Shown in pieces: positions 2,740 through 29,333 of a stretch of DNA of 64,000 bases. The DNA comes from Candidatus Gottesmanbacteria bacterium. Lineage in GTDB: Bacteria; Patescibacteriota; Microgenomatia; UBA10105; UBA927. Each line of letters opens with the position of its first letter. The first letter of the stretch is position 1. The translations under genes were made by a program, and so were the position numbers. The stretch lies in NCBI GenBank assembly GCA_963711735.1, contig CAVQFA010000003.1, forward strand, positions 82,971 to 146,970. Direction: 5' to 3'. Below the pieces are notes generated by a model, which had not been told where the DNA came from, made no database searches, and saw only the letters and a list, made by a program, of their open reading frames with translations.

Positions 2740-3336
2740 GTGAGTGTATTTGTTACAATACAGTGTATGTCTGATTTATACCTTCGGATTGTTCTTTTTC
2801 TGTCTCTTGCCGCAATTGCGCTTACTTGGACGTTCACGAGTCCGAAGAATTTTTTCAAATTCCTCTCAACCCTCCCCCAACCGCGCTATTGGATCATGCT
2901 CGGATACCAGCTTCTTCCTTTCCTGCAGCTGGGAGATGTTGTACGCGTGTCGTGGATGCCGAATGCATTCAGTGCAATTTGTATTTTTTCAGGAATAATT
3001 ATCCTGTGGTGCGGCATTATTCTTGCTGCTTGGGCAAAAATTGTGATGAAAACCAACTGGGGACGCCCGGGTCAGCATGATATCCGCAAACAGCATACGC
3101 TCGTGACCGGAGGACCGTTTGGGTATACCCGCAACCCGATTTATCTCGGACTCATCCTCGTATTTTTAGGATTTGAGCTTGCGATGCAGAGCTATTTAGT
3201 CATCCTCACACCCTTCCTTTATGTTTTTATGACAGTAATGATCCGGAGAGAAGAAACGCTCCTTGATTCGTATTTCGGTAATGAGTATGCGGGCTACAAA
3301 AACCGTGTCCCCCGCTTCTTCCCGTTTGTCAGATAA
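2740..3336 (+). CDS. Isoprenylcysteine carboxyl methyltransferase (ICMT/phospholipid methyltransferase) family membrane protein
   Basis: 198 aa, multi-TM. Family signature GGPFGYTRNPIYLG ... REE..L...FG.EY..Y...VPR. Confidence 0.7.
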   Translation: MSVFVTIQCMSDLYLRIVLFLSLAAIALTWTFTSPKNFFKFLSTLPQPRYWIMLGYQLLPFLQLGDVVRVSWMPNAFSAICIFSGIIILWCGIILAAWAKIVMKTNWGRPGQHDIRKQHTLVTGGPFGYTRNPIYLGLILVFLGFELAMQSYLVILTPFLYVFMTVMIRREETLLDSYFGNEYAGYKNRVPRFFPFVR

Positions 3337-3442
3337 GTTGCGCAATTTATGTGCAGAATATGGATTTTTCCTCTATTTTGCTTCAATTTTCATTGCCATC
3401 GCATGAATCTGATGCTATAATCAACGGCGTACCTTAAAGTAC

Positions 3443-6102: not shown

Positions 6103-7230
6103 ATGTATAAAGAAATAATGAGCCCGCTTCTTGACAGACTGGATTCTGAAACAATGCAGAGATTTACAAAGGACGCACTTCGTATTGCGGAATTATCTCC
6201 GGTGACTCTGAAAGTTTTAGAATTACTCGCAGATCGGCATAAAAGATTTAAAGATGAAAGATTACGGGTACAATTAGGAGGTGTTGAGTTTGAAAATCCG
6301 GTGGTTGTAGCAGCCGGTTGGGATAAAAACGGTCTTGCGGTGAAGGGGTTGTATGCTCTCGGTTTTGCCGGAGTTGAAGTCGGATCCGTTCTAACATACC
6401 CCCAACCGGGTAATCCAAAACCGAGACAATTTGTTATTGGTCCGGGCGTTGCGTTAAACAGGCGCGGGTTTGACAGTGACGGTATGGGAAAGGTAAACAG
6501 TAATCTGAGAAGATATACCAACAGCGGAATTCCTATCGGAATAAATATAGGGAAAAATAAGGAAATTCCGGATATTGCAGCCCCCTGGATGTATGCGGCT
6601 GTTACAAGGCAACTATATAGACATGCTGCATATTTTGTGGTTAATGTTTCCTCACCGAATACTCCGGGACTCAGGAGACTTCAGGAAAAGGAGCCATTAA
6701 CAGATATTGTCCGAGCGGTAAATCAAACAATGGATGAAATGGGAGGAAGAAAGCCTTTATTTGTAAAAATTGCACCGGAGTTAACACGTGAGGCTACAAA
6801 TGATGTTATTCAGGTAGTTTTGGATAATGGTTTAACAGGTATTATTGCTACAAATACCACAACAAATCCTGATATAAAAGCAAAATATGGGGAAATGTGG
6901 AAAAATGAAGCCGGGGGTATAAGCGGTGACGATTCTGTTTATAGACGTATGGCAACAGAAAAAGTTGCTCATATTTACAGAGAGACAAAAGGTGCAATTG
7001 AAATTATCGGAGTAGGCGGAATAAAAGACGCGGAAACTGCATTAGAGAAAATAAAGGCAGGTGCAAAGGTAGTTCAGGTCCTGACAGCAATTCGCGGCGA
7101 AGGACCGACGGTGGCCGGAAGAATCAACCGAGGAATTGTGGACTTCATGGAAAAGGAAGGAATAAAGAATCTCAGCGAAATAATTGGTATGAGGAATTCT
7201 GATTTCTACCAATCCCCTGTTTCGTTATAG
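6103..7230 (+). CDS. pyrD: Dihydroorotate dehydrogenase, class 2 (quinone-type) like
   Basis: 375 aa, collinear with E. coli PyrD. Motifs: NPVVVAAGWDKNG, NRRGFDSDG, VNVSSPNTPGLR, LFVKIAPEL, IIATNTT, GGISG, IIGVGGI. Confidence 0.85.
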   Translation: MYKEIMSPLLDRLDSETMQRFTKDALRIAELSPVTLKVLELLADRHKRFKDERLRVQLGGVEFENPVVVAAGWDKNGLAVKGLYALGFAGVEVGSVLTYPQPGNPKPRQFVIGPGVALNRRGFDSDGMGKVNSNLRRYTNSGIPIGINIGKNKEIPDIAAPWMYAAVTRQLYRHAAYFVVNVSSPNTPGLRRLQEKEPLTDIVRAVNQTMDEMGGRKPLFVKIAPELTREATNDVIQVVLDNGLTGIIATNTTTNPDIKAKYGEMWKNEAGGISGDDSVYRRMATEKVAHIYRETKGAIEIIGVGGIKDAETALEKIKAGAKVVQVLTAIRGEGPTVAGRINRGIVDFMEKEGIKNLSEIIGMRNSDFYQSPVSL

Positions 7231-7233
7231 AAA

Positions 7234-7255
7234 CCGCATTTCTGCGGTCTTTTCT
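7234..7255 (+). terminator. Rho-independent terminator of pyrD (CCGCA-TTTCT-GCGG + TCTTTTCT)
   Basis: Seen directly in the sequence. Confidence 0.55.
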
Positions 7256-7347
7256 ACCCTCAAATGCTCAATAATCTATTGAGAACTTGAGGGTAGTGCT
7301 GAGGTCTCATAATCATTTTATTGATTTTTGAGGGAATGTCCTCAGCA
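7254..7347. repeat. Two adjacent long imperfect palindromes (CTACCCTCAA...TTGAGGGTAG and TGCTGAGG...CCTCAGCA) between convergent genes
   Basis: 10-bp and 8-bp outer stems with inner sub-stems. The motif TTGAGGG occurs twice. Sits at the left boundary of the higher-GC island. Confidence 0.4.
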
Positions 7348-7388
7348 CAGAAAATCGTCCCCTCGCTTATTCAGCGAAAACTACTTGT

Positions 7389-8264
7389 TTACATTTCGCG
7401 CAGATTACCGGCTTTCTTCCAGCAATCGTAGTCAGCATAGAAGATGGCAATCGGCAAGCGAGGTGCAGATACTTGAGTGAACCAGCCGATGAACGGACGG
7501 TTGAAGACTAGTGGCCTCGGCTCATCCAGATCAATACCCTTGCGCATTGCCATACCAGTTGCGACTTTGACCCGGGCACCTTCCTTGTTGATCCGCAACA
7601 TGAACTGTTGATACGCTTCACTGATGTACCAGTACTGATCACTTTCATCGTGAGTATCAGCACCAACCAGGAAGCTGATGTCAGGCTTCATGTTGAAATC
7701 CACTTCGGGCACCTGTACGGTCGAGATGTTGCCAACGCGAGAATGACCCTTTGACATCGTTGTAAACGCGATGCGAATCAGATCCATCGGGCTGGTTGGC
7801 GTCGTATTGGGCATGGTGAGCCAGAGCTTGTCACCGCTTTTAGTCAGCAGACTTGCAACCTGCGAACCTTCCACAGTGAAAACAGTGTGTCCACCTTGAG
7901 GGATTTCAAACCCAGCGTGTGTCCGGTTGTCGCGGCCGTAAATCTCGCAAAGCGCAGCCTGCTTGAGCCATTCGATGAGCATGTCAAGGATCGAAACAAC
8001 GCCGATGCCCTCGAGTGGTCCGTTGAACATGGGATCAAATCCGCTGTCCGTGAGAAAACGGTTCAGTTCTTCCCAGTCAGTGGACGCTTTGGCTTTGAGA
8101 TTTGCCAGTGCACTCAACATGCCTTTGTATTGGCGGTAAAGCTCAAAGACGACGATCTGATTCTGGTTCTTGGTACCCCACTTCCGATCTGCACCCAGGT
8201 ATGCGTTTTCCAGAGTATGCAACGCATGGAAGATGGTTGTTACGTCGATCGCTTGTGTAGCCAT
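7389..8264 (-). CDS. Serpin-like protein, short form (paralog A)
   Basis: 291 aa. The C-terminal part is collinear with serpins: the breach-like LILLLKWKV, the hinge EGARVKVATGMAM (cf. EGTEAAAAT), a reactive-centre-loop-sized spacer, then FNRPFIGWF...PRLPIAIF (cf. FNRPFLFxI...PLFMGxV). The ~100 N-terminal serpin residues are missing. Confidence 0.5.
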   Translation of the reverse strand: MATQAIDVTTIFHALHTLENAYLGADRKWGTKNQNQIVVFELYRQYKGMLSALANLKAKASTDWEELNRFLTDSGFDPMFNGPLEGIGVVSILDMLIEWLKQAALCEIYGRDNRTHAGFEIPQGGHTVFTVEGSQVASLLTKSGDKLWLTMPNTTPTSPMDLIRIAFTTMSKGHSRVGNISTVQVPEVDFNMKPDISFLVGADTHDESDQYWYISEAYQQFMLRINKEGARVKVATGMAMRKGIDLDEPRPLVFNRPFIGWFTQVSAPRLPIAIFYADYDCWKKAGNLREM

Positions 8265-8323
8265 ATGATTCTCCTTGTTGTGTCGAGATAATCAGATTAA
8301 ATTGAATTGGTGAATGTCATCGC

Positions 8324-9187
8324 TTACATAAGATCACCCGGATCAGTCCAGTTCTCCTGGGTGATGTGTGCGACGAGCAGCGGTTTAGCGAGACCGTCGC
8401 GGACAATCCAGACCAGGAACGGTCGGTCGATGACGAGGTCGGGCTTCGACAAAATCGCGAATTCAAGCGTGATAGCGGCAGCTGCAGCGCTTTTGAGTAA
8501 CGCGCCCTTATCGTTCATCTTGAAGATCGTCTGCTGCTTCGCCTGGCTGATCCTCGCCTGCTGACCTGTGTTGGCGGTAGTCTCCATGTTCAGGAGCCAA
8601 CTAATATCGACAAGCTGATCGAGATCGACCATCGGGAAAACCAGGTCACCAAACTCCCTGTTGTGCTCGAGGGATGCCTGTATCTGCTCGACGTAGCTCA
8701 CGAGGTCGAAGTCAGTCGGTGGTGTCTCCATGACAGTCATAAAAACCTGATCTCCCGACTTGGTGGCAATGCAGACGACCGGTTTGGGGTGTTTGACGGA
8801 CGTATAGTAGGACATACCATTTTCCATCCGAACACCGTCATAGGTTTTACCATCTGCTGCGCGAAACTTCTCCTTCATGCCCTCCACCTTCCATTTGAGT
8901 AGTAGGATCAGGGTGGCAGCAACGCCGAAAGTGTCCTCGTCGAAATCGTCCAGCGTGATGCTGAAACCGCGCTCCTGCAAGAAACGGTTAATGTCCTCCG
9001 CACTCCAACTCGCAATCGACTCGATCTCCGAGATGCCCAGAACCTCATTGCGTGTGCGGTCGAAAAACTCAGTCAGGAAGCGCGTCTGCATCTGGTTCTG
9101 GGGACGCCAAACGCGACCCTCACCGATGATGTCATCAGCCTTACGGATAGCAGCTACGATAGGATGCATACATACTGTAGTACTCAT
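8324..9187 (-). CDS. Serpin-like protein, short form (paralog B)
   Basis: 287 aa, a paralog of 7389-8264. LILLLKWKVEGMKEKF, VFPMVDL, the hinge KGALLKSAAAAAIT and IDRPFLVWIVRDGLAKPLLVAHITQE match the serpin C-terminal signature. An AAGGAG RBS sits 8 nt upstream of the ATG. Confidence 0.5.
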   Translation of the reverse strand: MSTTVCMHPIVAAIRKADDIIGEGRVWRPQNQMQTRFLTEFFDRTRNEVLGISEIESIASWSAEDINRFLQERGFSITLDDFDEDTFGVAATLILLLKWKVEGMKEKFRAADGKTYDGVRMENGMSYYTSVKHPKPVVCIATKSGDQVFMTVMETPPTDFDLVSYVEQIQASLEHNREFGDLVFPMVDLDQLVDISWLLNMETTANTGQQARISQAKQQTIFKMNDKGALLKSAAAAAITLEFAILSKPDLVIDRPFLVWIVRDGLAKPLLVAHITQENWTDPGDLM

Positions 9188-9582
9188 GTCAAATCTCCTT
9201 TAGAATCGTGAAAATAGTGAACGAAAAAACAAACGTTTGTTTGCCATCCGACCACTTGGTCGCCTCAGCTATTTGGTCCTGTACGGGGACACAAAATCAG
9301 TTTTCTCCTATTCTGATTTGTTTGTTTTAGCTTTGGTTGATGGCTATCCGAACACGATATACATCATGCCCGTGTAGCCACCAACCAGCTTCAGAAACTG
9401 GAGAGAAATAAGTAGTTCGTAGGGAGACGATTCCGGCACAACCTATTCCATATATCCAGTCACGAAAGAGCCTCACTATTGAGACGTTTCATATCTTGAT
9501 AATACAGACGGTCATACCGGTATAACTCCCTACGAGTATATTCAGTTGTTAATGTGCTATCACTTAAGAAACAAAAAAATGA

Positions 9583-9617
9583 CCCGGAGCATAACATTTG
9601 CTCCGGTTTATTTTTTT
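9583..9617. terminator. Bidirectional intrinsic terminator-like hairpin (CCGGAGCA-TAACATT-TGCTCCGG flanked by an A-run and a T-run)
   Basis: Seen directly in the sequence. It lies inside the 730-nt noncoding gap. Confidence 0.45.
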
Positions 9618-9654
9618 ATATCACTAAATAAATCGACGTTCTTTCTTCTTCTTA

Positions 9655-9705
9655 TCCCCTTTCGCTCTTTTGAGCTCATCAGTACGGACATACATCCGTA
9701 AAGGG
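9655..9705 (-). ncRNA. Hammerhead ribozyme motif (type III topology)
   Basis: The minus strand reads ACCCU-U-[UACGGA UGUAUG UCCGUA]-CUGAUGA-[GCUC AAAA GAGC]-GAAA-GGGG. The conserved CUGAUGA and GAAA cores are present. Stem I is 6 bp and directly precedes CUGAUGA, stem II is 4 bp with a tetraloop, and stem III is ACCCU/AGGG(G), which places a U-H cleavage site directly before stem I. Confidence 0.6.
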
Positions 9706-9922
9706 TGGTGCGATTTATATATTTTGTCTTGTGAGACTGATATAAAGGTTCGCACCGACCTATAAACTTCAAGAGTATAAAAACCGCAATTTTTCCCCGA
9801 CCTAGATTTGGTCAGTTACCTTTCAATCGCCGTCCGGCGAGCCATATTATGGCGAAAGGTCTGCTAGAGGGGGATCCCCGCAGTGTTAGGGGACACTAAT
9901 TCAGAAAATGTCTTTTCTATAG

Positions 9923-10711
9923 CTAGTTATCAGACTGTTTCTGAAACTTCGTCATGCGCTCTGCGACACGCTGTTCGATCGGTATCTCAGGGCTTTTAGC
10001 AAGAGATTCCAATTCGGCGGTAGCTTTGAGTTCGGCGCGAACTTTCTCTGCCTGTTCGGTCCAAACATCTGCTTCAGCTTCAGCGTCTTTGACCAAGTCG
10101 TATGCCTTCTTGATCTGTTCGTCGTTGCCATCAACGCCGAGTGTCGAAATCAGCTTGTTGGCATCGCCAACGCTTCGCGCTGTGCGCGACCGGACATCGA
10201 TCTCGTTGACCTGGCGGGCGCGAACGGCGATGATCTTTGCCAAATCCGTAAGAGCTGCTTCGACGTCAGCTTCCTTAGTTTTGATCTTGTTGAATTCAGG
10301 CTGAATGGTATCCACGCGGCCTTGAGCTTTAGCAATTTTTTCTTCGGCTTTCGTGACCAAATCAGCATTCTGAATGCTTGCCGCGTTATCAGCTGCGGCA
10401 TTGTATTTGGCAACATCAGCCATAGCTTCTGCCAAATCGTTTTGCAGGCGACGTCGGACTGTCTTGATTGCAATCAGGTCGGCGTTACCACGTGCTTGTT
10501 TGATTTCAGCATCGCGCTTAGATTTCAAGGCGCGATCCTTTGCGCTGTCCAGCAAACGCTGAGCGCGGGTTTTCAGCCCGAAAACGCGTACGCGGATTGT
10601 CTCCGCTAAAGGGTCAGGCGAGAGTGCACACCAGGCGGCAATAATCGCCCCAATGACCACAGCCAGTAAGATAGTTGTTCCAGTAGACATTTGATATACT
10701 CCTTCTTGCAT
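9923..10711 (-). CDS. Membrane-anchored coiled-coil protein, PspA/IM30-like (tentative)
   Basis: 262 aa: an N-terminal TM helix followed by a long A/Q/R/E/K-rich coiled coil. ...VRARQVNEIDVRSR...KDAEAEADVW resembles the conserved PspA segment ending in AEAEA. Confidence 0.4.
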   Translation of the reverse strand: MQEGVYQMSTGTTILLAVVIGAIIAAWCALSPDPLAETIRVRVFGLKTRAQRLLDSAKDRALKSKRDAEIKQARGNADLIAIKTVRRRLQNDLAEAMADVAKYNAAADNAASIQNADLVTKAEEKIAKAQGRVDTIQPEFNKIKTKEADVEAALTDLAKIIAVRARQVNEIDVRSRTARSVGDANKLISTLGVDGNDEQIKKAYDLVKDAEAEADVWTEQAEKVRAELKATAELESLAKSPEIPIEQRVAERMTKFQKQSDN

Positions 10712-10788
10712 TGATTTAAAAGGTTTTGTCTATGATTTGTTTGATCAGATTTTATTTTCTTTGGGTTATATCTCTTTTACTATCCTCC

Positions 10789-11400
10789 TTATGATGCCAA
10801 TGCTAGGATCAAAGTCGCAATTTTCACTACCACGACCATGATGACATGGCTATTGTTGTCCTTCATTGTCACCCAGTCACGGAATTCATCCATGTTGTGT
10901 ATAGAGAAAACGAACCGTGCAATCAGGATGGTGATACAGTCCCCGACAATCTCGCCCAAGGCTCCTCTGGTCATGATGCCATACAGATACTGATCAAAGG
11001 AAGCTCCTTTTATCGATACGATCAGTGCGAGAGTTAGGAAAATCAAACCACCCAGGATAATCGCGTGACTGTCATTCCGTGGGCTTTCGAATTCTCGCTT
11101 TATTTGACGAATTGGGGTATCCAACACATGGTAAAAAATCACCCATGCCCGCACAAAAACGATACCGATCACGATGCCCAATCGGATAAAATACTCCCCT
11201 ATCCAACCGGGGATATTCCCGAATGTTTCCGTCACCACATGTGTTGACGGAGCCAAAACATATTGAGCAATGGCAAATACTAAAACCATAAGGCTCCACC
11301 AAATAATCGTATATAACGTTCCGCTGATACCTCTAGTCGGAAAATGCACATGTTTCTTAATGCTGGCGCTCATAAATCGCTCCTTGATCTTATGCTGCAC
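10789..11400 (-). CDS. Integral membrane protein (about 5 TM), function unknown
   Basis: 203 aa with hydrophobic helices. Same strand and operon-like spacing as its neighbours. Confidence 0.5.
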   Translation of the reverse strand: MQHKIKERFMSASIKKHVHFPTRGISGTLYTIIWWSLMVLVFAIAQYVLAPSTHVVTETFGNIPGWIGEYFIRLGIVIGIVFVRAWVIFYHVLDTPIRQIKREFESPRNDSHAIILGGLIFLTLALIVSIKGASFDQYLYGIMTRGALGEIVGDCITILIARFVFSIHNMDEFRDWVTMKDNNSHVIMVVVVKIATLILALAS

Positions 11401-12160
11401 GCAAAATCTTGCCGCAGTACTGTTGAATGGTCATTCCTAGTGCATGACCCATCTTCCAAACACGATCCGCTCCAGCCTTGACGTTTTCCAGATATATGAT
11501 GTTCTTCTGGGTGTCTTCGGCCAACATGTATTTCACCATCATGCCGTTTGGAAGGTGACTTGTTCCATCTGTTTGTTCATACCGAAGATATCCGACGTCT
11601 AGTACGGTCAATTTCTGACCATTCCACTTAAACGAATAACTCCGTGGTACTTGATCATATTGTTCGCTGAAGGTTACACCGGCTTCATCAAACATGGAAG
11701 CGGATTCGCCCTCTAACACTATCGCGTTTCCTTTGTCGAACCAAAACCAGCCATCCGGACGTTTTATCAGCATAATTGTGCCGTCCAGAATAAAAACCGG
11801 CCAGTTTTCTCCCCGATCAGTGAAATTACGATCAGAACGATTTAGCGCGCACAATTGTCCCCTGCAGGTAACAACACGTTCTTTTCGTTCAAGAACATTA
11901 ACGCTATCTAAGTCGATCTCTACCGTCTCTCCTGAACGCAAATCTTCGAATTGCTTCTCTATAGGTGCGTCATAAGGAATACGGCTCATGGATGCCTTTG
12001 TTTCATTGGCAACCTGAACTAGAACGTTTGTAGATTTTCGAACAGTAGTGATCCATTCTTTCAAATCACGAATATGTTGTGGATTCGAGAGTAGGTAGCC
12101 GAGACCAGCCACCAACAATATCACAAACCCAAATATTACGAGTATTGTTCCTGTTATCAT
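11390..12160 (-). CDS. Membrane-anchored hypothetical protein (possibly DUF4178-like)
   Basis: 256 aa with an N-terminal TM and a soluble domain containing WPVFILDGTIMLIKRPDGWFWFDKG and YSFKWNGQKLTVLDVGYLRY. The family assignment is from memory only. Confidence 0.4.
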   Translation of the reverse strand: MITGTILVIFGFVILLVAGLGYLLSNPQHIRDLKEWITTVRKSTNVLVQVANETKASMSRIPYDAPIEKQFEDLRSGETVEIDLDSVNVLERKERVVTCRGQLCALNRSDRNFTDRGENWPVFILDGTIMLIKRPDGWFWFDKGNAIVLEGESASMFDEAGVTFSEQYDQVPRSYSFKWNGQKLTVLDVGYLRYEQTDGTSHLPNGMMVKYMLAEDTQKNIIYLENVKAGADRVWKMGHALGMTIQQYCGKILRAA

Positions 12161-12183
12161 GCTTTAAGCTCCTTATTTTTGAC

Positions 12184-13482
12184 TTACCATCCGTCATCAC
12201 TGCCCCAATCGTCGCTGGAATCCCAACTGTCATCACTGCCCCAATCGTCGCTGGAATCCCAACTGTCATCACTGCCCCAATCGTCACTGGAATCCCAACT
12301 GTCATCACTGCCCCAGTTGTCATCGCCGCCCCAATCGGAATCAGAACTCCAGTCAGTATCAGATCCTTCGTCATCAGAACTACCTGAAGAATCAGAATCT
12401 GAATTCCAATCCCAGCCTGAAGATGAACTCGGCGAATCATCATTATCAGAATTGCTAGGAACAGAAGTTGGTGGTGGAGGTTCAGCAGCAGAAATGCTCA
12501 TGTTTGCATAACTCACACATGAATTAACATGTGTAGTCACACTTGAAAAATCCTGAGATATACATGACTGATATGCTAAATCTCCTTCACTAATAGCAAG
12601 GTTATATTTGCTTTGCGCGACGATACTGTCATAAGCACCGATCAGTTGTGAGGCTGCAAGATTAATGGTGCTTTGACAATTTGCGATTTGTGATTGTGCT
12701 TGGTCAGCGGAGACATTGAGTTGTTCAGCGGTTGTTCTTGCTGATTCAACTTGATTTGCAACTTGTTGTGCTTGATCGTATGCTACAGGTTTGTCCACAA
12801 CGCCATCCGGAACGATCACTGTAAGTGTCGTCCGTGCGACATTAAGGCCTATTGATGCTTGGTTGAGTATGCTTAATGCGGATTCGTATGATAAAAGCGT
12901 TGATGACCCACATAAAGCTTTTGCAGGCAGGGTATTAATGTATTGTCGTCCTTCGTCAATGCTTGCCTGAACCCTATCGATATAACCACTGTCGATTTCT
13001 TGGGTTTTTTGATTAAGGATGTCATAGTATCGCTGATCCGTAGTACCTGGAGGACCAAGGATTTGAATAATTATCAGTTCTGAATTATTTAGAGCTGCAT
13101 CTGCTTCTTCCCAGTACTGACGTGCTAAGGTGCGGTTATTGTTTTGTAGCGCCTGCACACCAGATGCCCAGATATTATAGATTGTTCCATTGTTCTCTAG
13201 ATTGTCACGGGAAGTAGACAGTTTCTGCTCAAATCCTTCAGACCAATGTCGAGCAAATAGAGCTGCGTTTTGATCGAATTCATTCTCCGCGTTAGGAAGC
13301 ATTTGAAGCAGCGTTGTTCTGCGTACCTCAATATCTGCGAGCTTATTAGTTAAGTCACGTAAGTCCGCTGCACCAAACGCATTTATAATGAGTCCAATAG
13401 CTATGAGAACGATTCCCAAAGCGGCAACCCATGCCCACTTACTGTTGTCGACCTCGTGTCGACGATAGTAATAAACAGACAT
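12184..13482 (-). CDS. Membrane-anchored protein with a C-terminal acidic Trp-rich tandem repeat (DDWGSDDSWDSS)n
   Basis: 432 aa. The N-terminal TM is KWAWVAALGIVLIAIGLIINAFG. The C-terminus is encoded by 36-nt tandem DNA repeats. Confidence 0.55.
   Translation of the reverse strand: MSVYYYRRHEVDNSKWAWVAALGIVLIAIGLIINAFGAADLRDLTNKLADIEVRRTTLLQMLPNAENEFDQNAALFARHWSEGFEQKLSTSRDNLENNGTIYNIWASGVQALQNNNRTLARQYWEEADAALNNSELIIIQILGPPGTTDQRYYDILNQKTQEIDSGYIDRVQASIDEGRQYINTLPAKALCGSSTLLSYESALSILNQASIGLNVARTTLTVIVPDGVVDKPVAYDQAQQVANQVESARTTAEQLNVSADQAQSQIANCQSTINLAASQLIGAYDSIVAQSKYNLAISEGDLAYQSCISQDFSSVTTHVNSCVSYANMSISAAEPPPPTSVPSNSDNDDSPSSSSGWDWNSDSDSSGSSDDEGSDTDWSSDSDWGGDDNWGSDDSWDSSDDWGSDDSWDSSDDWGSDDSWDSSDDWGSDDGW
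12191..12330. repeat. Intragenic tandem repeat: 36-nt unit (CCAATCGTCGCTGGAATCCCAACTGTCATCACTGCC) about 3.5 copies
   Basis: Near-perfect direct copies seen in the sequence. They encode a 12-aa D/S/W/G repeat on the minus strand. Confidence 0.8.
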
Positions 13483-13842
13483 TTGGCATACCTCCTGCTC
13501 TGAACGTCAAGCTGGTTTGCGTCATCTTTCTATTGTTTAGTTGTCCTCCTGTATGAGATAAGTCGGATAAAATTGTATCAGCACTATAATAAAGCTGTAG
13601 TGCTTTCAAAGCCGATTGTTATCGACCCTCAAAGCACTACAGCAATCCCCTTTTTAATTTTTTCTCTTGAAGTTGTTAAGGTGCAAAATCTATGGTTTCC
13701 AACCCCACAATCACCCTTTCGGGTATATGTGGTTCTAATTTCTTTTTTTAAAAAGAAAAAGAACCACAAAAAACACTCCGCAAAATTGGAGTGTGGTTGT
13801 TTGGTTACGTAGCCATAGAATAGAACTCTCTCTTCGGGAAAA

Positions 13843-13890
13843 CAAAATAACCGCCGCCGGTGATTTCCACTGGCAGGCGGTTAAAATTTT
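13843..13890. terminator. Strong hairpin (AACCGCC GCCGGTG...CACTGGC A GGCGGTT) flanked by an A-run and a T-run; bidirectional terminator-like
   Basis: Seen directly in the sequence. Confidence 0.4.
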
Positions 13891-14108
13891 GAGGCACAAT
13901 TGCCCCAACCCCCAAAGATTTGAGTAAACGGAATTATACCTGACACTACTCTCACTGTCAATCACTATAGGGTATTTTATGTTAAAAAACCTTGGCTTGC
14001 ATTGAGGTTAATCAGCAGAACATATATATATTGATATGTCGGAAGTTTGATTTTCTTGCTTTTTCGTTGACTTCTGTCTTTCAGTCCCCATACAGTAGAA
14101 CTAGGCAT

Positions 14109-14672
14109 ATGAAATCAAAGAAAAAACCGGGTTTTCACATTTCAAATACCCTTCTCATTGTTCTTCTCCTGGCTAACGTTCTCATTCTCGACATTTGGGT
14201 TGTAACCCATTATCTTTGGGGTTCTCCTTCGGTACTCGGTGTTTCAAGTGATGCGTGTCCGCAATCGTGCATCGACAGGATAAACCGTACGTCAGGGTCC
14301 GCATCATCCTCCAAAGAATACTTCGTGCCGCTCGGGTCAGGAACAGGCACATCCAAAGAATGGGCGGATGTTTCCGGGGCACAGGCGTATATCGACAGCA
14401 CTCTCTACCCCGCCGGAAAGACTGTGACATTTGAGGTAACCCTTACGATTCCGGCAGGAAACCAGATCGTATGGGTGCGCCTCTATAACGCCACAGACAA
14501 ACACCCTGTATGGTTCTCGGAACTGTCTATGGAAGGATCCGGTCCGCGCGCGCTTATTTCAGGTCCCATTACCCTTGATTCGGGGAAAAAACTCTACGTC
14601 GTACAGCTTAAAACCCAACTCGGAACGCTTACAAACGTACTCCAGTCACGCATCCGCATTGTAGCGAAATAA
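14109..14672 (+). CDS. Secreted/membrane-anchored hypothetical protein
   Basis: Start taken at MKSKKKPGFHISNTLLIVLLLANVLIL (signal/TM), not at the track start 13992. No recognisable domain. Confidence 0.45.
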   Translation: MKSKKKPGFHISNTLLIVLLLANVLILDIWVVTHYLWGSPSVLGVSSDACPQSCIDRINRTSGSASSSKEYFVPLGSGTGTSKEWADVSGAQAYIDSTLYPAGKTVTFEVTLTIPAGNQIVWVRLYNATDKHPVWFSELSMEGSGPRALISGPITLDSGKKLYVVQLKTQLGTLTNVLQSRIRIVAK

Positions 14673-14699
14673 AGGCAATATTCGAACGCAAAATCATTG

Positions 14700-14771
14700 T
14701 GCCAGAGGAGAGGATCGGACTCTCGACGCCACGCTTATGAAGCGTGTGCTCTACCACTGAGCTACTCTGGC
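14700..14771 (-). tRNA. tRNA-Met (anticodon CAT), elongator-type
   Basis: Minus strand reads GCCAGAG-TA-GCTC-AGTGGTA-GAGC-A-CACGC-TTCATAA-GCGTG-GCGTC-GAGAG-TCCGATC-CTCTC-CTCTGGC-A. Acceptor and all arms are perfect; CCA is not encoded. The overlapping track ORF 14697-14882 is spurious. Confidence 0.9.
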
Positions 14772-15418: not shown

Positions 15419-16279
15419 ATGTCCCTAGACCTGAAGACCGCTCATGCCCAATTTATCGAACACCTTACCTCACGCAGACGTGCCCGCGCTACCATCATAG
15501 CATACGCCAAGGACATCGATCAGGTGCTTGCATACCTTACAAATGCCGGAAAAAAGGATGTGACTGACGTGACGCGTGATGAAATCGAAGCGTTTCTGAA
15601 AAAACTGTCAAGCGACAGCTACACACCCAAGTCCGTTTCACGGAAAATCAACTCGATCAAGACATTTTTCCGGTTTCTCAAATCATCCGGTGCTATTACG
15701 GCTGATCCGGCAATTGAGATAGAGCATCCCAAATACGAAGTCAAACCGCCCCGGATTCTGTCTAAACTGGAGTACCGCGCCCTTCGGGATGCGTGCCGCG
15801 GTGATCTTCGTACTCATGCAATCGTTGAACTTTTTCTCCAGACAGGAGTGAGGATCGGAGAACTGGCTAATCTGACTCTAACGGACATCAAAGAAACAGA
15901 ACTTCATATCGCGCCTGAGGAAGGTCACGCAGAACGCATGGTTCCTTTAAATAAAGCAGCTAAAGATGCTCTCAACAGCTATCTTGCACAGAGAAATTCC
16001 AACGGTACAAGCCAGGCTCTTTTTATCACAAAAACAGGCAAGCCGCTTCTTATCAGAAACATCCGTACTGCAATTGACCGGTATTTCCGTGTGGCAGGTA
16101 TTGAGGGAGCCAAAGTCAATGACCTTCGGCATACATTCATCGCCCACCACCTCATTGCCGGTACACCCATCACAACCCTGTCAAAACTTGTCGGACATAA
16201 ACGTTTATCCACAACGGAAAAGTACCTGGATCTCGTCAAGGATAAGCAGACGGAAAACGTGAAGCTTGATGAGTTATAA
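15419..16279 (+). CDS. xerD: Tyrosine recombinase XerC/XerD-like
   Basis: 286 aa. The N-terminal SAM-like domain reads TIIAYAKDIDQVLAYL. The catalytic region LRHTFIAHHLIAGTPITTLSKLVGHKRLSTTEKYLDL carries the R..H..R..Y motifs. Confidence 0.8.
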   Translation: MSLDLKTAHAQFIEHLTSRRRARATIIAYAKDIDQVLAYLTNAGKKDVTDVTRDEIEAFLKKLSSDSYTPKSVSRKINSIKTFFRFLKSSGAITADPAIEIEHPKYEVKPPRILSKLEYRALRDACRGDLRTHAIVELFLQTGVRIGELANLTLTDIKETELHIAPEEGHAERMVPLNKAAKDALNSYLAQRNSNGTSQALFITKTGKPLLIRNIRTAIDRYFRVAGIEGAKVNDLRHTFIAHHLIAGTPITTLSKLVGHKRLSTTEKYLDLVKDKQTENVKLDEL

Positions 16280-16911: not shown

Positions 16912-16934
16912 AAATATTTAATATATGTCGTTTG

Positions 16935-17006
16935 TGCGCCTGCTTGGAATCGGACCAAGTACATCCACTTTATAAGAGTGGCGTTCTACCACTGAACTAC
17001 AGGCGC
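16935..17006 (-). tRNA. tRNA-Ile (anticodon TAT)
   Basis: Minus strand reads GCGCCTG-TA-GTTC-AGTGGTA-GAAC-G-CCACT-CTTATAA-AGTGG-ATGTA-CTTGG-TCCGATT-CCAAG-CAGGCGC-A. All stems are perfect, and positions 34-36 are TAT. Confidence 0.85.
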
Positions 17007-18381: not shown

Positions 18382-19081
18382 ATGGACAGTAAAAAGAAAC
18401 TCTACATACTGCACGGATGGGCATACCGGACGGATAAATGGCAACCCTTTCTTTCCGCACTGGAAAAATGTGGGTTTGAACCGGTCATGATCCCCATACC
18501 GGGGCTGACTACTCCGATGCAAAAGCCATGGACAATTGATGACTTTATTTCATATCTTGAAAAAACTTTTCCGAAGAATGCACCTTTCTTTCTCTTGGGA
18601 CACTCAAACGGCGGGAGGCTTGCCATCCGTTTTGCAATCAAACACCCCGGCCGCATCAGACATCTTATCCTTGTTGACAGCGCGGGTGTCTACCATACTG
18701 ATATACATATTCAATTGAAACGTTCTGTGTTTAAGCTTCTGTCAGTTATAGGCCAACCGCTTAAAAACATTCCGGTTTTCCGGAAATTCGTCGTATTTGT
18801 TCATAGGTGAGCGTGATTATCTGGAAGCGCCTCCTTATACACGCCGAACTATGTCTAATCTTCTCGAATCTGATAAAAATCTCAATTTGGATACTCTGCG
18901 TGTTCCGACGTCTATTATCTGGGGAGAAAATGATACGGTTACTCCCGTGTCCGATGGTCTTCACATGAAAAATATAATACCGAATGCCACGTGTCATATT
19001 ATCCCCAATGCCCGCCACGCACCTCAATTTACACATGTTTCTGAAGTTGTTAAGTGTGTTCAACGAGCTATACATGGATAA
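18382..19081 (+). CDS. Alpha/beta hydrolase, interrupted by a +1 frameshift near 18795-18810
   Basis: The nucleophile elbow LGHSNGG is in the first ORF (frame 1). The C-terminal IWGENDTVTP ... NARHAPQFTH (catalytic His) is in the second ORF (frame 2). Confidence 0.6.
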
Positions 19082-28901: not shown

Positions 28902-29333
28902 ATGACAATTCAAATATATACAGACGGTGGAGCACGCGGAAATCCCGGGCCTGCAGCGATTGGTGTTGTTGTTTTACATGATAATAAACCCGTAGCGGAA
29001 TGGGGGAAAGGGATTGGTGCTGCTTCAAATAATGTTGCAGAGTATTGGGCAGTTTCAGATGCATTGGAATACGTACATACATACGTGAAAGGTATTTCAA
29101 AAAAAGTAAAAAAAACAATTGAACATATTCATTTTTATCTTGATTCAACTCTGGTAGTAAATCAGTTAAACGGAACATTTAAAGTAAAGGATGCGAATCT
29201 CAGGGAATTTCTTATGAAAATCAGAATTCTTGAAAGGGAAGTGGGAATACCTATTTCATATACATATATTCCGAGAGAAAAAAATACACGTGCGGATTTT
29301 ATGGTTAATCGTGCACTTGATAATCTTCAATAA
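28902..29333 (+). CDS. rnhA: Ribonuclease H (RNase HI type)
   Basis: 143 aa with IYTDGGARGNPGPAAIG, NNVAEYWAV and REKNTRAD (the DEDD catalytic residues). Confidence 0.8.
   Translation: MTIQIYTDGGARGNPGPAAIGVVVLHDNKPVAEWGKGIGAASNNVAEYWAVSDALEYVHTYVKGISKKVKKTIEHIHFYLDSTLVVNQLNGTFKVKDANLREFLMKIRILEREVGIPISYTYIPREKNTRADFMVNRALDNLQ

Follow-up and report, generated by a model that had tools for sequence, protein, structure and literature searches.

The question raised by this locus is whether six neighbouring genes on one strand form a single acquired system or are independent units that lie side by side. The genes occupy a block (7254-13482) of a 64,000-nucleotide (nt) stretch of DNA from a Candidatus Gottesmanbacteria bacterium (contig CAVQFA010000003.1), which is referred to as the window and from whose first letter all positions are counted unless another locus is named. 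Four of the genes encode membrane proteins and make up an operon with a PspA-like protein, while the other two encode short serpin-like proteins, here called mini-serpins (serp1 and serp2). An earlier note, made from the sequence, had described this block as an acquired island rich in guanine and cytosine (GC) that combines membrane-stress and serpin functions. The analysis presented here leads to a different answer: the block is probably a juxtaposition of three independent units, namely the PspA operon, a 213-nt insertion carrying a hammerhead ribozyme, and a cassette made up of a structured leader RNA and the mini-serpins.

The evidence for this answer comes from separate occurrence, transcription and composition. 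The PspA operon is found without serpins in the related loci L006 and L007/L008, where the gene order is the same (L006 reaches 1.3 kb past pspA). The mini-serpin cassette is found without PspA in about 88 of the roughly 90 mini-serpin loci. When the neighbours of the mini-serpins were clustered over these loci, no family occurred in more than 7. The clusters at the head of the ranking contained an ABC transporter, a helix-hairpin-helix protein, a methyltransferase and a sensor kinase. Such unrelated contexts, with no recurring neighbour, indicate a mobile cassette that is independent of PspA. The PspA operon and the serpin cassette are also separate transcription units, each with a leader of its own and with a terminator between them, as follows from the intrinsic terminator at 9606-9584 and from the conserved leader that precedes the serpins. 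The third unit was recognised from spacing. In the window, ATACTCTTGAAGT and TTAACAACTGAATA stand 213 nt apart, whereas in L006 they follow pspA directly with a spacing of 2 nt (3310-3338) and the arrangement in L007 is similar. Because the motif is contiguous in both of these loci, the intervening 213 nt of the window are read as an insertion. A global MAFFT alignment of the regions downstream of pspA was uninformative, and shared-word analysis was used instead.

Composition separates the units in the same way. Among the 61 genes of the window, serp2 has the highest GC content at third codon positions (GC3), at 0.670 (z = 3.1; total GC 0.536), and serp1 reaches 0.596 (z = 2.0 in the per-gene comparison; total GC 0.513). 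The PspA-like gene is outlying in total GC (0.512) but not in GC3 (0.517), in keeping with a product rich in Ala, and the remaining three genes are average or lower in GC. The two serpin-like genes are therefore the only members of the block with foreign composition. Taken together with the unrelated contexts in which it is found elsewhere, this indicates that the serpin cassette was probably acquired horizontally, while the PspA operon looks native.

The reading that these data have to be set against is that the whole block is one island, acquired beside tRNA-Met by means of the neighbouring tyrosine recombinase and encoding a single membrane-stress/serpin system. Several observations behind it were correct. 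The calls of open reading frames (ORFs) confirm six consecutive genes on the minus strand, which lie on the 3' side of tRNA-Met; the cluster of palindromes at the left border exists; and both a tRNA-Met gene and a XerD-like recombinase are present to the right of the block. The tetranucleotide deviation is moderate across 7-13 kb (z about 2-2.8), and the PspA operon is rare in databases and has a different context in L007. However, the reported GC contrast of 50-60% against 20-40% is not seen, since the block has a GC content of 46.7% and the remaining window one of 44.5% (44.7% for the window as a whole). This places the block at about +1.1 standard deviations, rank 50 of 578 equal-sized windows. 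Lines of 60 bases average 0.467 within the block and 0.445 elsewhere, with fully overlapping ranges, and the tetranucleotide deviation of the block does not exceed that of the 3-7 kb flank. Atypical composition does not extend throughout the block, as outlying GC3 is confined to the two serpin genes.

The arrangement around the tRNA also argues against a single island. The sole recombinase is of the XerC/D type and lies outside the block on the 5' side of tRNA-Met, beside an ftsB-like gene and upp, and because of this position the layout is not that of a tRNA-integrated island, in which an integrase would be located inside the island by the tRNA. The interval between the block and tRNA-Met holds an unrelated gene (13992-14672, +) and a 500-nt leader. 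The earlier note had proposed to look for the 3' end of tRNA-Met repeated directly at the left border. In this comparison the tRNA-Met region shares no word of at least 12 nt with that border or with any other part of the window; shared 10-11-mers are at chance level and fall outside the tRNA. The model thus lacks an att-like repeat, and its supposed components occur apart in other loci. A role as a defence system was considered separately and rejected, as PADLOC returned no match for any of the six block proteins; an NCBIfam scan of them gave nothing useful. The acquisition of the whole block as one island is largely refuted by this analysis and must be regarded as very improbable. The features on which the discussion of the three units draws are collected in Table 1.

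Table 1. Position, strand and main characteristics of the features of the block and its surroundings (window coordinates, except for the leader homologues).
Feature	Position	Strand	Remarks
Six consecutive ORFs	7389-8264, 8324-9187, 9923-10711, 10789-11400, 11390-12160, 12184-13482	-	all on the minus strand
PspA operon transcript	13961 to about 9575	-	promoter to terminator; four membrane proteins
PspA-operon promoter and long 5' leader	13483..13961	-	
Sigma-70 promoter	13961-13933	-	perfect TTGACA-17-TATAAT
Terminator-like hairpin in PspA leader	13794-13773	-	
Left inverted-repeat arm	13658-13679	-	with TTAACAACTTCAAGAG word
Hairpin in PspA leader	13594-13643		23-nt arms
Single-pass acidic-tail membrane protein	12184..13482	-	432 amino acids (aa)
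Transmembrane-anchored beta-rich protein	11390..12160	-	256 aa; divergent DUF4178
5-transmembrane membrane protein	10789..11400	-	203 aa; five hydrophobic segments
Transmembrane-anchored PspA/IM30 (ESCRT-III superfamily)	9923..10711	-	Pfam PF04012; profile against PDB; transmembrane segment
Variable 3' untranslated region	9766-9922		
Right arm of inverted repeat around PspA operon	9765..9781		partner 13658-13674
213-nt insertion	9553..9765	-	hairpin, type III hammerhead, extended intrinsic terminator
Type III hammerhead	9707-9655	-	
Intrinsic terminator core	9606-9584	-	
Structured leader RNA	9189..9554	-	about 340 nt; 5' of mini-serpin 2
Leader RNA homologues	L001 3398-3779; L014 7649-7999; L016 2781-3140; L019 2349-2636		
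Mini-serpin 2 (serp2)	8324..9187	-	287 aa; family profile, AlphaFold2, Foldseek
Mini-serpin 1 (serp1)	7389..8264	-	291 aa; Pfam Serpin 19.6 bits
Convergent intergenic region	7231..7388		pyrD (+) / mini-serpin 1 (-); 158 nt, four hairpins
9-bp stem	7296-7304/7340-7348		
Palindrome	7254-7296		20-nt arms
pyrD terminator hairpin	7233-7248		
tRNA-Met	14699-14771	-	tRNA call
Xer-type (tyrosine) recombinase	15419-16279		about 170 bits to XerC, XerD, XerA

The first unit, the PspA operon, encodes proteins whose assignments in the earlier note were for the most part borne out. The PspA/IM30-like protein matches PF04012 with 29.2 bits (E = 8.5e-7; cut-off 33.9) over positions 33-216 of 220. In the database entries for this protein and for two homologues (P0096-P0098), PF04012 is already given as a precomputed annotation. 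A profile built from it and three homologues recovers Vipp1, sll0617 and PspA chains from the PDB with E values from 8e-6 to 5e-3, in a colinear alignment of query residues 47-213 to chain residues 16-189. Residues 12-30 form a hydrophobic transmembrane segment (Kyte-Doolittle 2.45) that is kept in the orthologs, so that an integral anchor sits where the amphipathic helix alpha-0 of PspA/IM30 proteins would be expected. The true start of the protein is probably the second Met, which gives a 255-aa form. The acidic-repeat membrane protein is likewise confirmed, as in the 432-aa product of the first gene one N-terminal transmembrane segment is followed by a helical domain in the middle and, at the C-terminus, by a repeat tail of D, S and W with a net charge of -47. 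Tandem repeats of 36 nt encode this tail, whose last residues are ...SDDGW*. Comparison of the first operon gene in the window, L006 and L007 shows a variable middle domain and the same DDWGS-type tail ending in (S/G)DGW*.

The 256-aa protein has a single N-terminal transmembrane segment and a beta-rich domain predicted to be cytoplasmic. The proposal that it is DUF4178-like holds by a transitive route and fails as a direct match. The window protein itself gives no DUF4178 match in Pfam at E < 0.1, but a homologue, P0123, which is related to it with E = 6e-14, reaches 26.2 bits against PF13785, above the cut-off of 25, over positions 11-136 of 136. A further family member, P0133, scores 16.4 bits. 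Because P0123 clears the cut-off, the 256-aa protein is assigned on sequence grounds to a divergent branch of DUF4178 whose membership is transitive only. Two homologues were found by word search and 36 cluster representatives by full HMMER. The AlphaFold2 model of the protein has a predicted local distance difference test (pLDDT) score of 93.7, and a structure search with it matched no solved fold. The 5-transmembrane protein shows the expected five hydrophobic segments and carries two conserved motifs, (R)NDSHA and DNNSH; orthologs are present in L006 and L007. By analogy with PspA, Vipp1 and ESCRT-III, the coiled-coil PspA-like protein may polymerise on the cytoplasmic face of the membrane and thereby seal or remodel damaged bilayer. 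Its integral-membrane partners could act as anchor, sensor or recruiter, as proposed for PspB/C, LiaI or YjfL-type proteins. The operon indicates that small-genome candidate-phyla bacteria retain a stripped-down, wholly membrane-anchored PspA module. Since its partners are near-orphans (divergent DUF4178, 5-transmembrane and DDWGS-repeat proteins), its simplicity makes it suitable for finding out which role DUF4178-type partners play beside PspA.

The operon is preceded by a leader of about 450 nt, and its layout of promoter, TTAACAACTTCAAGA, long hairpin and ribosome-binding site is repeated in L007 (7312-7585). This leader could serve as an attenuator or constitute a small RNA. In both loci with both ends visible, the window and L007, the operon is bracketed by an inverted repeat. 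In the window the repeat comprises 17 nt with 88% complementarity and is the top long-range inverted repeat of the region; its equivalent in L007 is 7441-7467 / 10230-10256. Between the two loci, one position differs in each of the arms (window CTCTTGAAG, L007 TTCTTGAAG). The repeat could represent pairing between the 5' and 3' parts of the RNA, an invertible segment, or paired sites for protein binding.

The second unit lies in the 735-nt gap between pspA and mini-serpin 2. The hammerhead that the earlier note had seen there is complete, with a full core and three helices. It reads CCCU-U/UACGGAU-GUAU-GUCCGUA-CUGAUGA-GCUC-AAAA-GAGC-GAAA-GGG, and its core shows C3-A9, G12-A14, A15.1-U16.1 and a residue H17 other than G, with stems I and II closed. 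The fold of the whole insertion (-61.8 kcal/mol, z = -5.3) combines a hairpin, the three-way junction of the hammerhead and a long hairpin that forms the terminator, and the hammerhead junction is obtained from the unconstrained minimum-free-energy fold. The score against the Rfam family Hammerhead_3 (RF00008) is 29.2 bits, below the cut-off of 48.5; none of the 20 phage hammerhead loci tested reached the Rfam gathering score either. The pattern CTGATGAGCTC-N3-6-GAGCGAAA matches at least 120 IMG/VR contigs, and 31 distinct matches are compact type III hammerheads with the geometry seen in the window. Cleavage is predicted between U9701 and U9700. Self-cleavage at this site would detach the terminator hairpin from the mRNA of the PspA operon. 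No hammerhead was found downstream of pspA in L006 or L007. An intergenic region of the related contig L019 (11100-11260, +) contains a second type III hammerhead with the same order of hairpin, hammerhead and terminator and the same CCCU/GGG stem III, which suggests that the hammerhead-terminator is a recurrent 3'-end module. Such a module suggests ribozyme-mediated trimming of the 3' ends of bacterial mRNAs. Hammerhead-like pattern matches were also noted in L007, L016, L034, L071 and L074 and were rejected as chance matches.

The third unit contains the mini-serpins, which are paralogues of 24-28% identity. Against the Pfam family Serpin (PF00079), serp1 and serp2 score 19.6 and 22.7 bits, below the threshold of 27 and over the C-terminal 60-70 residues only, and many members of the family bear a precomputed PF00079 annotation. 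The serpin-like identity given in the earlier note is secured by more sensitive comparisons. A search with serp2 yielded 93 homologues of 267-326 aa, mostly 284-300, from Woesebacteria, Acidobacteria/Terriglobia, Ardenticatenaceae and metagenomes, the closest being from Candidatus Woesebacteria. The family profile finds PAI-1 in the PDB with E = 4e-9, aligning query residues 127-275 to serpin residues 212-375, and its alignment with SerpinB3 begins at residue 98 (corresponding to SerpinB3 residue ~185). The AlphaFold2 model of serp2 (pLDDT 95.3) has four or five helices. Foldseek relates it with a probability of 1.00 and E ~1e-10 to cleaved or latent serpins, thermopin and CrmA, at template modelling scores of 0.50-0.58. 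The reactive-centre-loop hinge GALLKSAAAAA (residues ~228-238) is present in serp2, together with the s1C motif DRPF. In the family consensus, E.GAR.KSA.A..V is followed by PKPDLVID.PFLVW, and G228, A229, S233, A234, P256 and F257 are near-invariant or invariant. A full-length serpin core of about 350-400 aa with helices A-I is not present, as roughly 90 N-terminal residues are missing. Neither a transmembrane segment nor a signal peptide was found in serp1 or serp2, and both are predicted to be cytoplasmic. The mini-serpins would be suicide-substrate inhibitors of intracellular or phage-encoded proteases, acting through insertion of the reactive-centre loop.

The contexts of the family are varied. 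In L002/L003, a serp1 ortholog (56% identity) and a serp2-like gene form a pair in reversed order between ruvA and ruvB. In L001, the mini-serpin lies beside a TrwB/TraG-like ATPase, and in L014 a mini-serpin pair follows methyltransferase, ResIII and SMC-like genes. A Terriglobia locus (L004, 7600-11972) shows a co-oriented run of a proteasome-family gene (PF00227), an AAA ATPase, a mini-serpin and an fn3-containing protein. This arrangement hints at a tie between mini-serpins and compartmentalised intracellular proteolysis. The mini-serpin of L012 has a phage-like setting, a series of small co-oriented ORFs that includes Thg1, NAD synthase and NAPRTase genes, and that of L015 lies in a contig of 434,688 bp classed as viral by IMG/VR.

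The leader RNA of the cassette was spotted through a 21-27-nt match at an equal distance upstream of the mini-serpins in L014 and L016/L017. Its alignment was assembled with blastn, MAFFT and nhmmer and comprises five distinct loci (window, L001, L014, L016 and L019). RNAalifold predicts three helices, P1 of 10 bp (9535-9526 with 9426-9417), P2 of 11 bp and P3 of 25 bp (hairpin ~9388-9331), with compensatory changes in 33 of 64 pairs. The cells of the three helices are paired in 92.6% of cases, as opposed to 35-48% in slid controls, and pairs changed on both sides number 20, compared with 4-6 when slid. These observed values were attained by 0 of 500 shuffles. In the window and L014, an AU-rich terminator-like hairpin directly precedes the ribosome-binding site. 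The leader has no match in Rfam and no pattern match in the viral contigs of IMG/VR. With five sequences only, it is a candidate for a new cis-regulatory RNA, and it is proposed to control the expression of the mini-serpins.

Several observations weigh against the division into three independent units or against particular steps of the account given above. An hmmsearch over the ~90 mini-serpin loci found PspA adjacent in the window and in L013 only, and in the latter, an actinobacterial-like locus of 68.6% GC, PspA is directly upstream of a mini-serpin (6240-8804: canonical PspA, a 68-nt gap and the mini-serpin, preceded by an FHA-like ORF and a 66-aa transmembrane protein). Moreover, the word CACNTTAACAACT is common to the leader of the PspA operon and the stretch immediately 5' of the serpin leader. 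Both membership in a known family and the ribozyme are affected by further points. The earlier note had guessed DUF350 for the 5-transmembrane protein; neither this protein nor its two orthologs match any Pfam family, DUF350 (PF03994) included, and hhalign against E. coli YjfL gave E = 0.29 and a probability of 0.2%, with only the DNNSH/NNNTA motif aligned. The guess is thus unsupported, and the protein is possibly a remote DUF350/YjfL relative. The covariance model R1, built from 22 type III hammerheads of phage contigs, assigns the window hammerhead 62.1 bits with 15 of 15 pairs formed, but it is partly circular because 19 of the ~53 positions are the search pattern itself. The triplet of the window hammerhead is CUU, whereas the phage examples have GUC or GUA. 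A single scan of genome contigs with pyrD yielded two loci, one labelled "Chloroflexota" (67% identity) and one from Candidatus Daviesbacteria (56%), and neither of these relatives has a single neighbour gene in common with the window. Finally, AlphaFold2 places residues 228-242 of serp2 as an already inserted beta-strand.

The first two of these observations bear on the possibility that the PspA operon and the mini-serpins are co-regulated through a TTAACAAC-type site, with the serpins either protecting PspA or membrane proteins against proteolysis induced by stress, or sensing a protease released by envelope damage or phage infection. Adjacency in two unrelated lineages weakly sustains a link between PspA and serpins. 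The shared word of 13-17 nt lies upstream of both units in the window and also precedes the serpin leader in L014, L016, L019 and L001. Together they leave room for some functional or regulatory coupling. However, the adjacency concerns only 2 of the ~90 loci, one being the window as the ascertained case, and the PspA subtypes differ (transmembrane-anchored in the window, canonical in L013). The form CACNTTAACAACT(T/G)(C/A)A is found three times in the window, each time intergenic and on the minus strand (13679, 9552 and 19053). As the site at 19053 is unrelated to either unit, the word may be a general promoter element; a lineage-specific promoter element or a regulator site are both possible. 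A functional coupling of this kind is consequently judged quite improbable. A wider proposal would make the leader a new riboswitch-like or attenuator class of RNA that controls unrecognised minimal intracellular serpins, co-regulated with the membrane-anchored PspA module through the TTAACAAC-type site. It is unlikely, though somewhat less so, and if true it would link envelope stress to the control of intracellular proteolysis. The L013 contig measures 525 kb.

The inserted strand in the serp2 model concerns the mechanism of the mini-serpins, because a loop that is inserted from the outset, if real, argues against inhibitory metastability. It may be either a modelling bias or the sign of a constitutively relaxed family. 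According to the second view, the mini-serpins would have a stable, loop-inserted, reduced fold that serves another purpose (binding, chaperoning, or as a decoy in phage or defence contexts), and the RNA in front of the genes would be a non-coding RNA in its own right and not a leader. Cleaved or latent serpins are indeed the best matches in the PDB, the canonical fold has lost about 90 residues at the N-terminus, and mini-serpins are found in phage-like contigs, among other contexts, and near restriction-modification or defence-like genes. However, small or hydrophobic residues are kept at the inward positions P14, P12, P10 and P8, and DRPF is nearly invariant, as expected of a loop obliged to insert on cleavage. 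It should also be taken into account that AlphaFold2 tends toward relaxed states of metastable proteins. A non-inhibitory role is therefore a possible reading, but rather less probable than its opposite. If the mini-serpins are inhibitory, as is preferred here, they define the minimal machinery of the serpin spring mechanism; if not, they show a use for the relaxed fold.

The remaining features lie at the margins of the block or elsewhere in the window. The convergent region between pyrD and serp1 (7231-7388) folds at -62.2 kcal/mol (z = -8.8), and its 20-nt-arm palindrome has no further copy in the window. The hairpins of this left border are most likely bidirectional terminators or stabilisers of the 3' ends of pyrD and serp1. 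To the left of the block, the 3-7 kb stretch reaches a tetranucleotide z of 2.8 in the direction of low GC, and the lowest GC3 in the window belongs to a gene at 28902-29333 (+; 0.215, z = -3.4). ARAGORN also calls a tRNA-Ile with the anticodon TAT (UAU) at 16934-17006 (-), an uncommon way for bacteria to read AUA.

Comparison with known systems begins with the PspA operon. The statement in the earlier note that the combination is not a described system is half right, since operons of PspA with YjfL/DUF350 and DUF4178 partners have been catalogued (Ravi et al. 2024, mSystems, PMC11237479). As in those operons and in E. coli yjfIJKLMC, a PspA/IM30 protein shares its operon with a multi-transmembrane protein and with a DUF4178-type protein that is rich in beta-strands and for which a cytoplasmic location is predicted. 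In contrast to them, the window operon lacks CesT/Tir chaperone, spermine-synthase/7TM, lipoprotein and ATP-grasp genes; its PspA and DUF4178-like proteins each have an N-terminal transmembrane anchor; and its multi-transmembrane protein has five such segments and no detectable DUF350 match. It adds a DDWGS-repeat membrane protein, conserved flanking inverted repeats and a long leader. The PspA-like protein resembles PspA, Vipp1 (IM30) and LiaH in its match to PF04012 and in being colinear with the coiled-coil core of the solved structures, but it has a transmembrane helix in place of alpha-0 and a Pfam score below the gathering threshold. PspB/C, PspF and LiaI/F, the partners in canonical PspA systems, are absent. 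The operon is best described as a reduced, lineage-specific and transmembrane-anchored variant of the PspA-DUF350-DUF4178 neighbourhoods.

The mini-serpins share their fold with prokaryotic and viral serpins such as thermopin (1MTP), miropin, tengpin and CrmA (probability 1.0). Their C-terminal half, from s3A onward through the hinge, reactive-centre loop, s1C and s4B/s5B, is colinear with PAI-1 and SerpinB3. Unlike these serpins, they are only 284-300 aa long, have lost about 90 residues of the N-terminal helical half, lack a signal peptide, often occur as a paralogous pair and have a conserved structured RNA upstream. To our knowledge, the smallest well-studied serpin is viral CrmA with 341 aa, and a family of ~290 aa would be the smallest known serpin fold. 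A literature search found no relevant paper on mini-serpins or on serpins in candidate phyla radiation bacteria. A comprehensive phylogeny of the serpin superfamily excluded every sequence whose length fell more than 25% below the median, and hence this size class (PMC8233489).

Hammerheads of bacteria and phages are an established class (Perreault et al. 2011, PMC3088659). Like them, the ribozyme of the window is an intergenic type III hammerhead with a CUGAUGA...GAAA core and three helices, and it agrees exactly with the 31 IMG/VR hammerheads in stem II (GCUC-AAAA-GAGC) and in the geometry of stem I. Unlike them, it lies in a chromosomal 3' untranslated region directly before an intrinsic terminator instead of flanking prophage genes, uses a CUU triplet and is part of a 213-nt insertion. 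Each of the three units is a new variant or member of something known, and most of the novelty lies in the compact serpin family and in the structured leader that precedes it.

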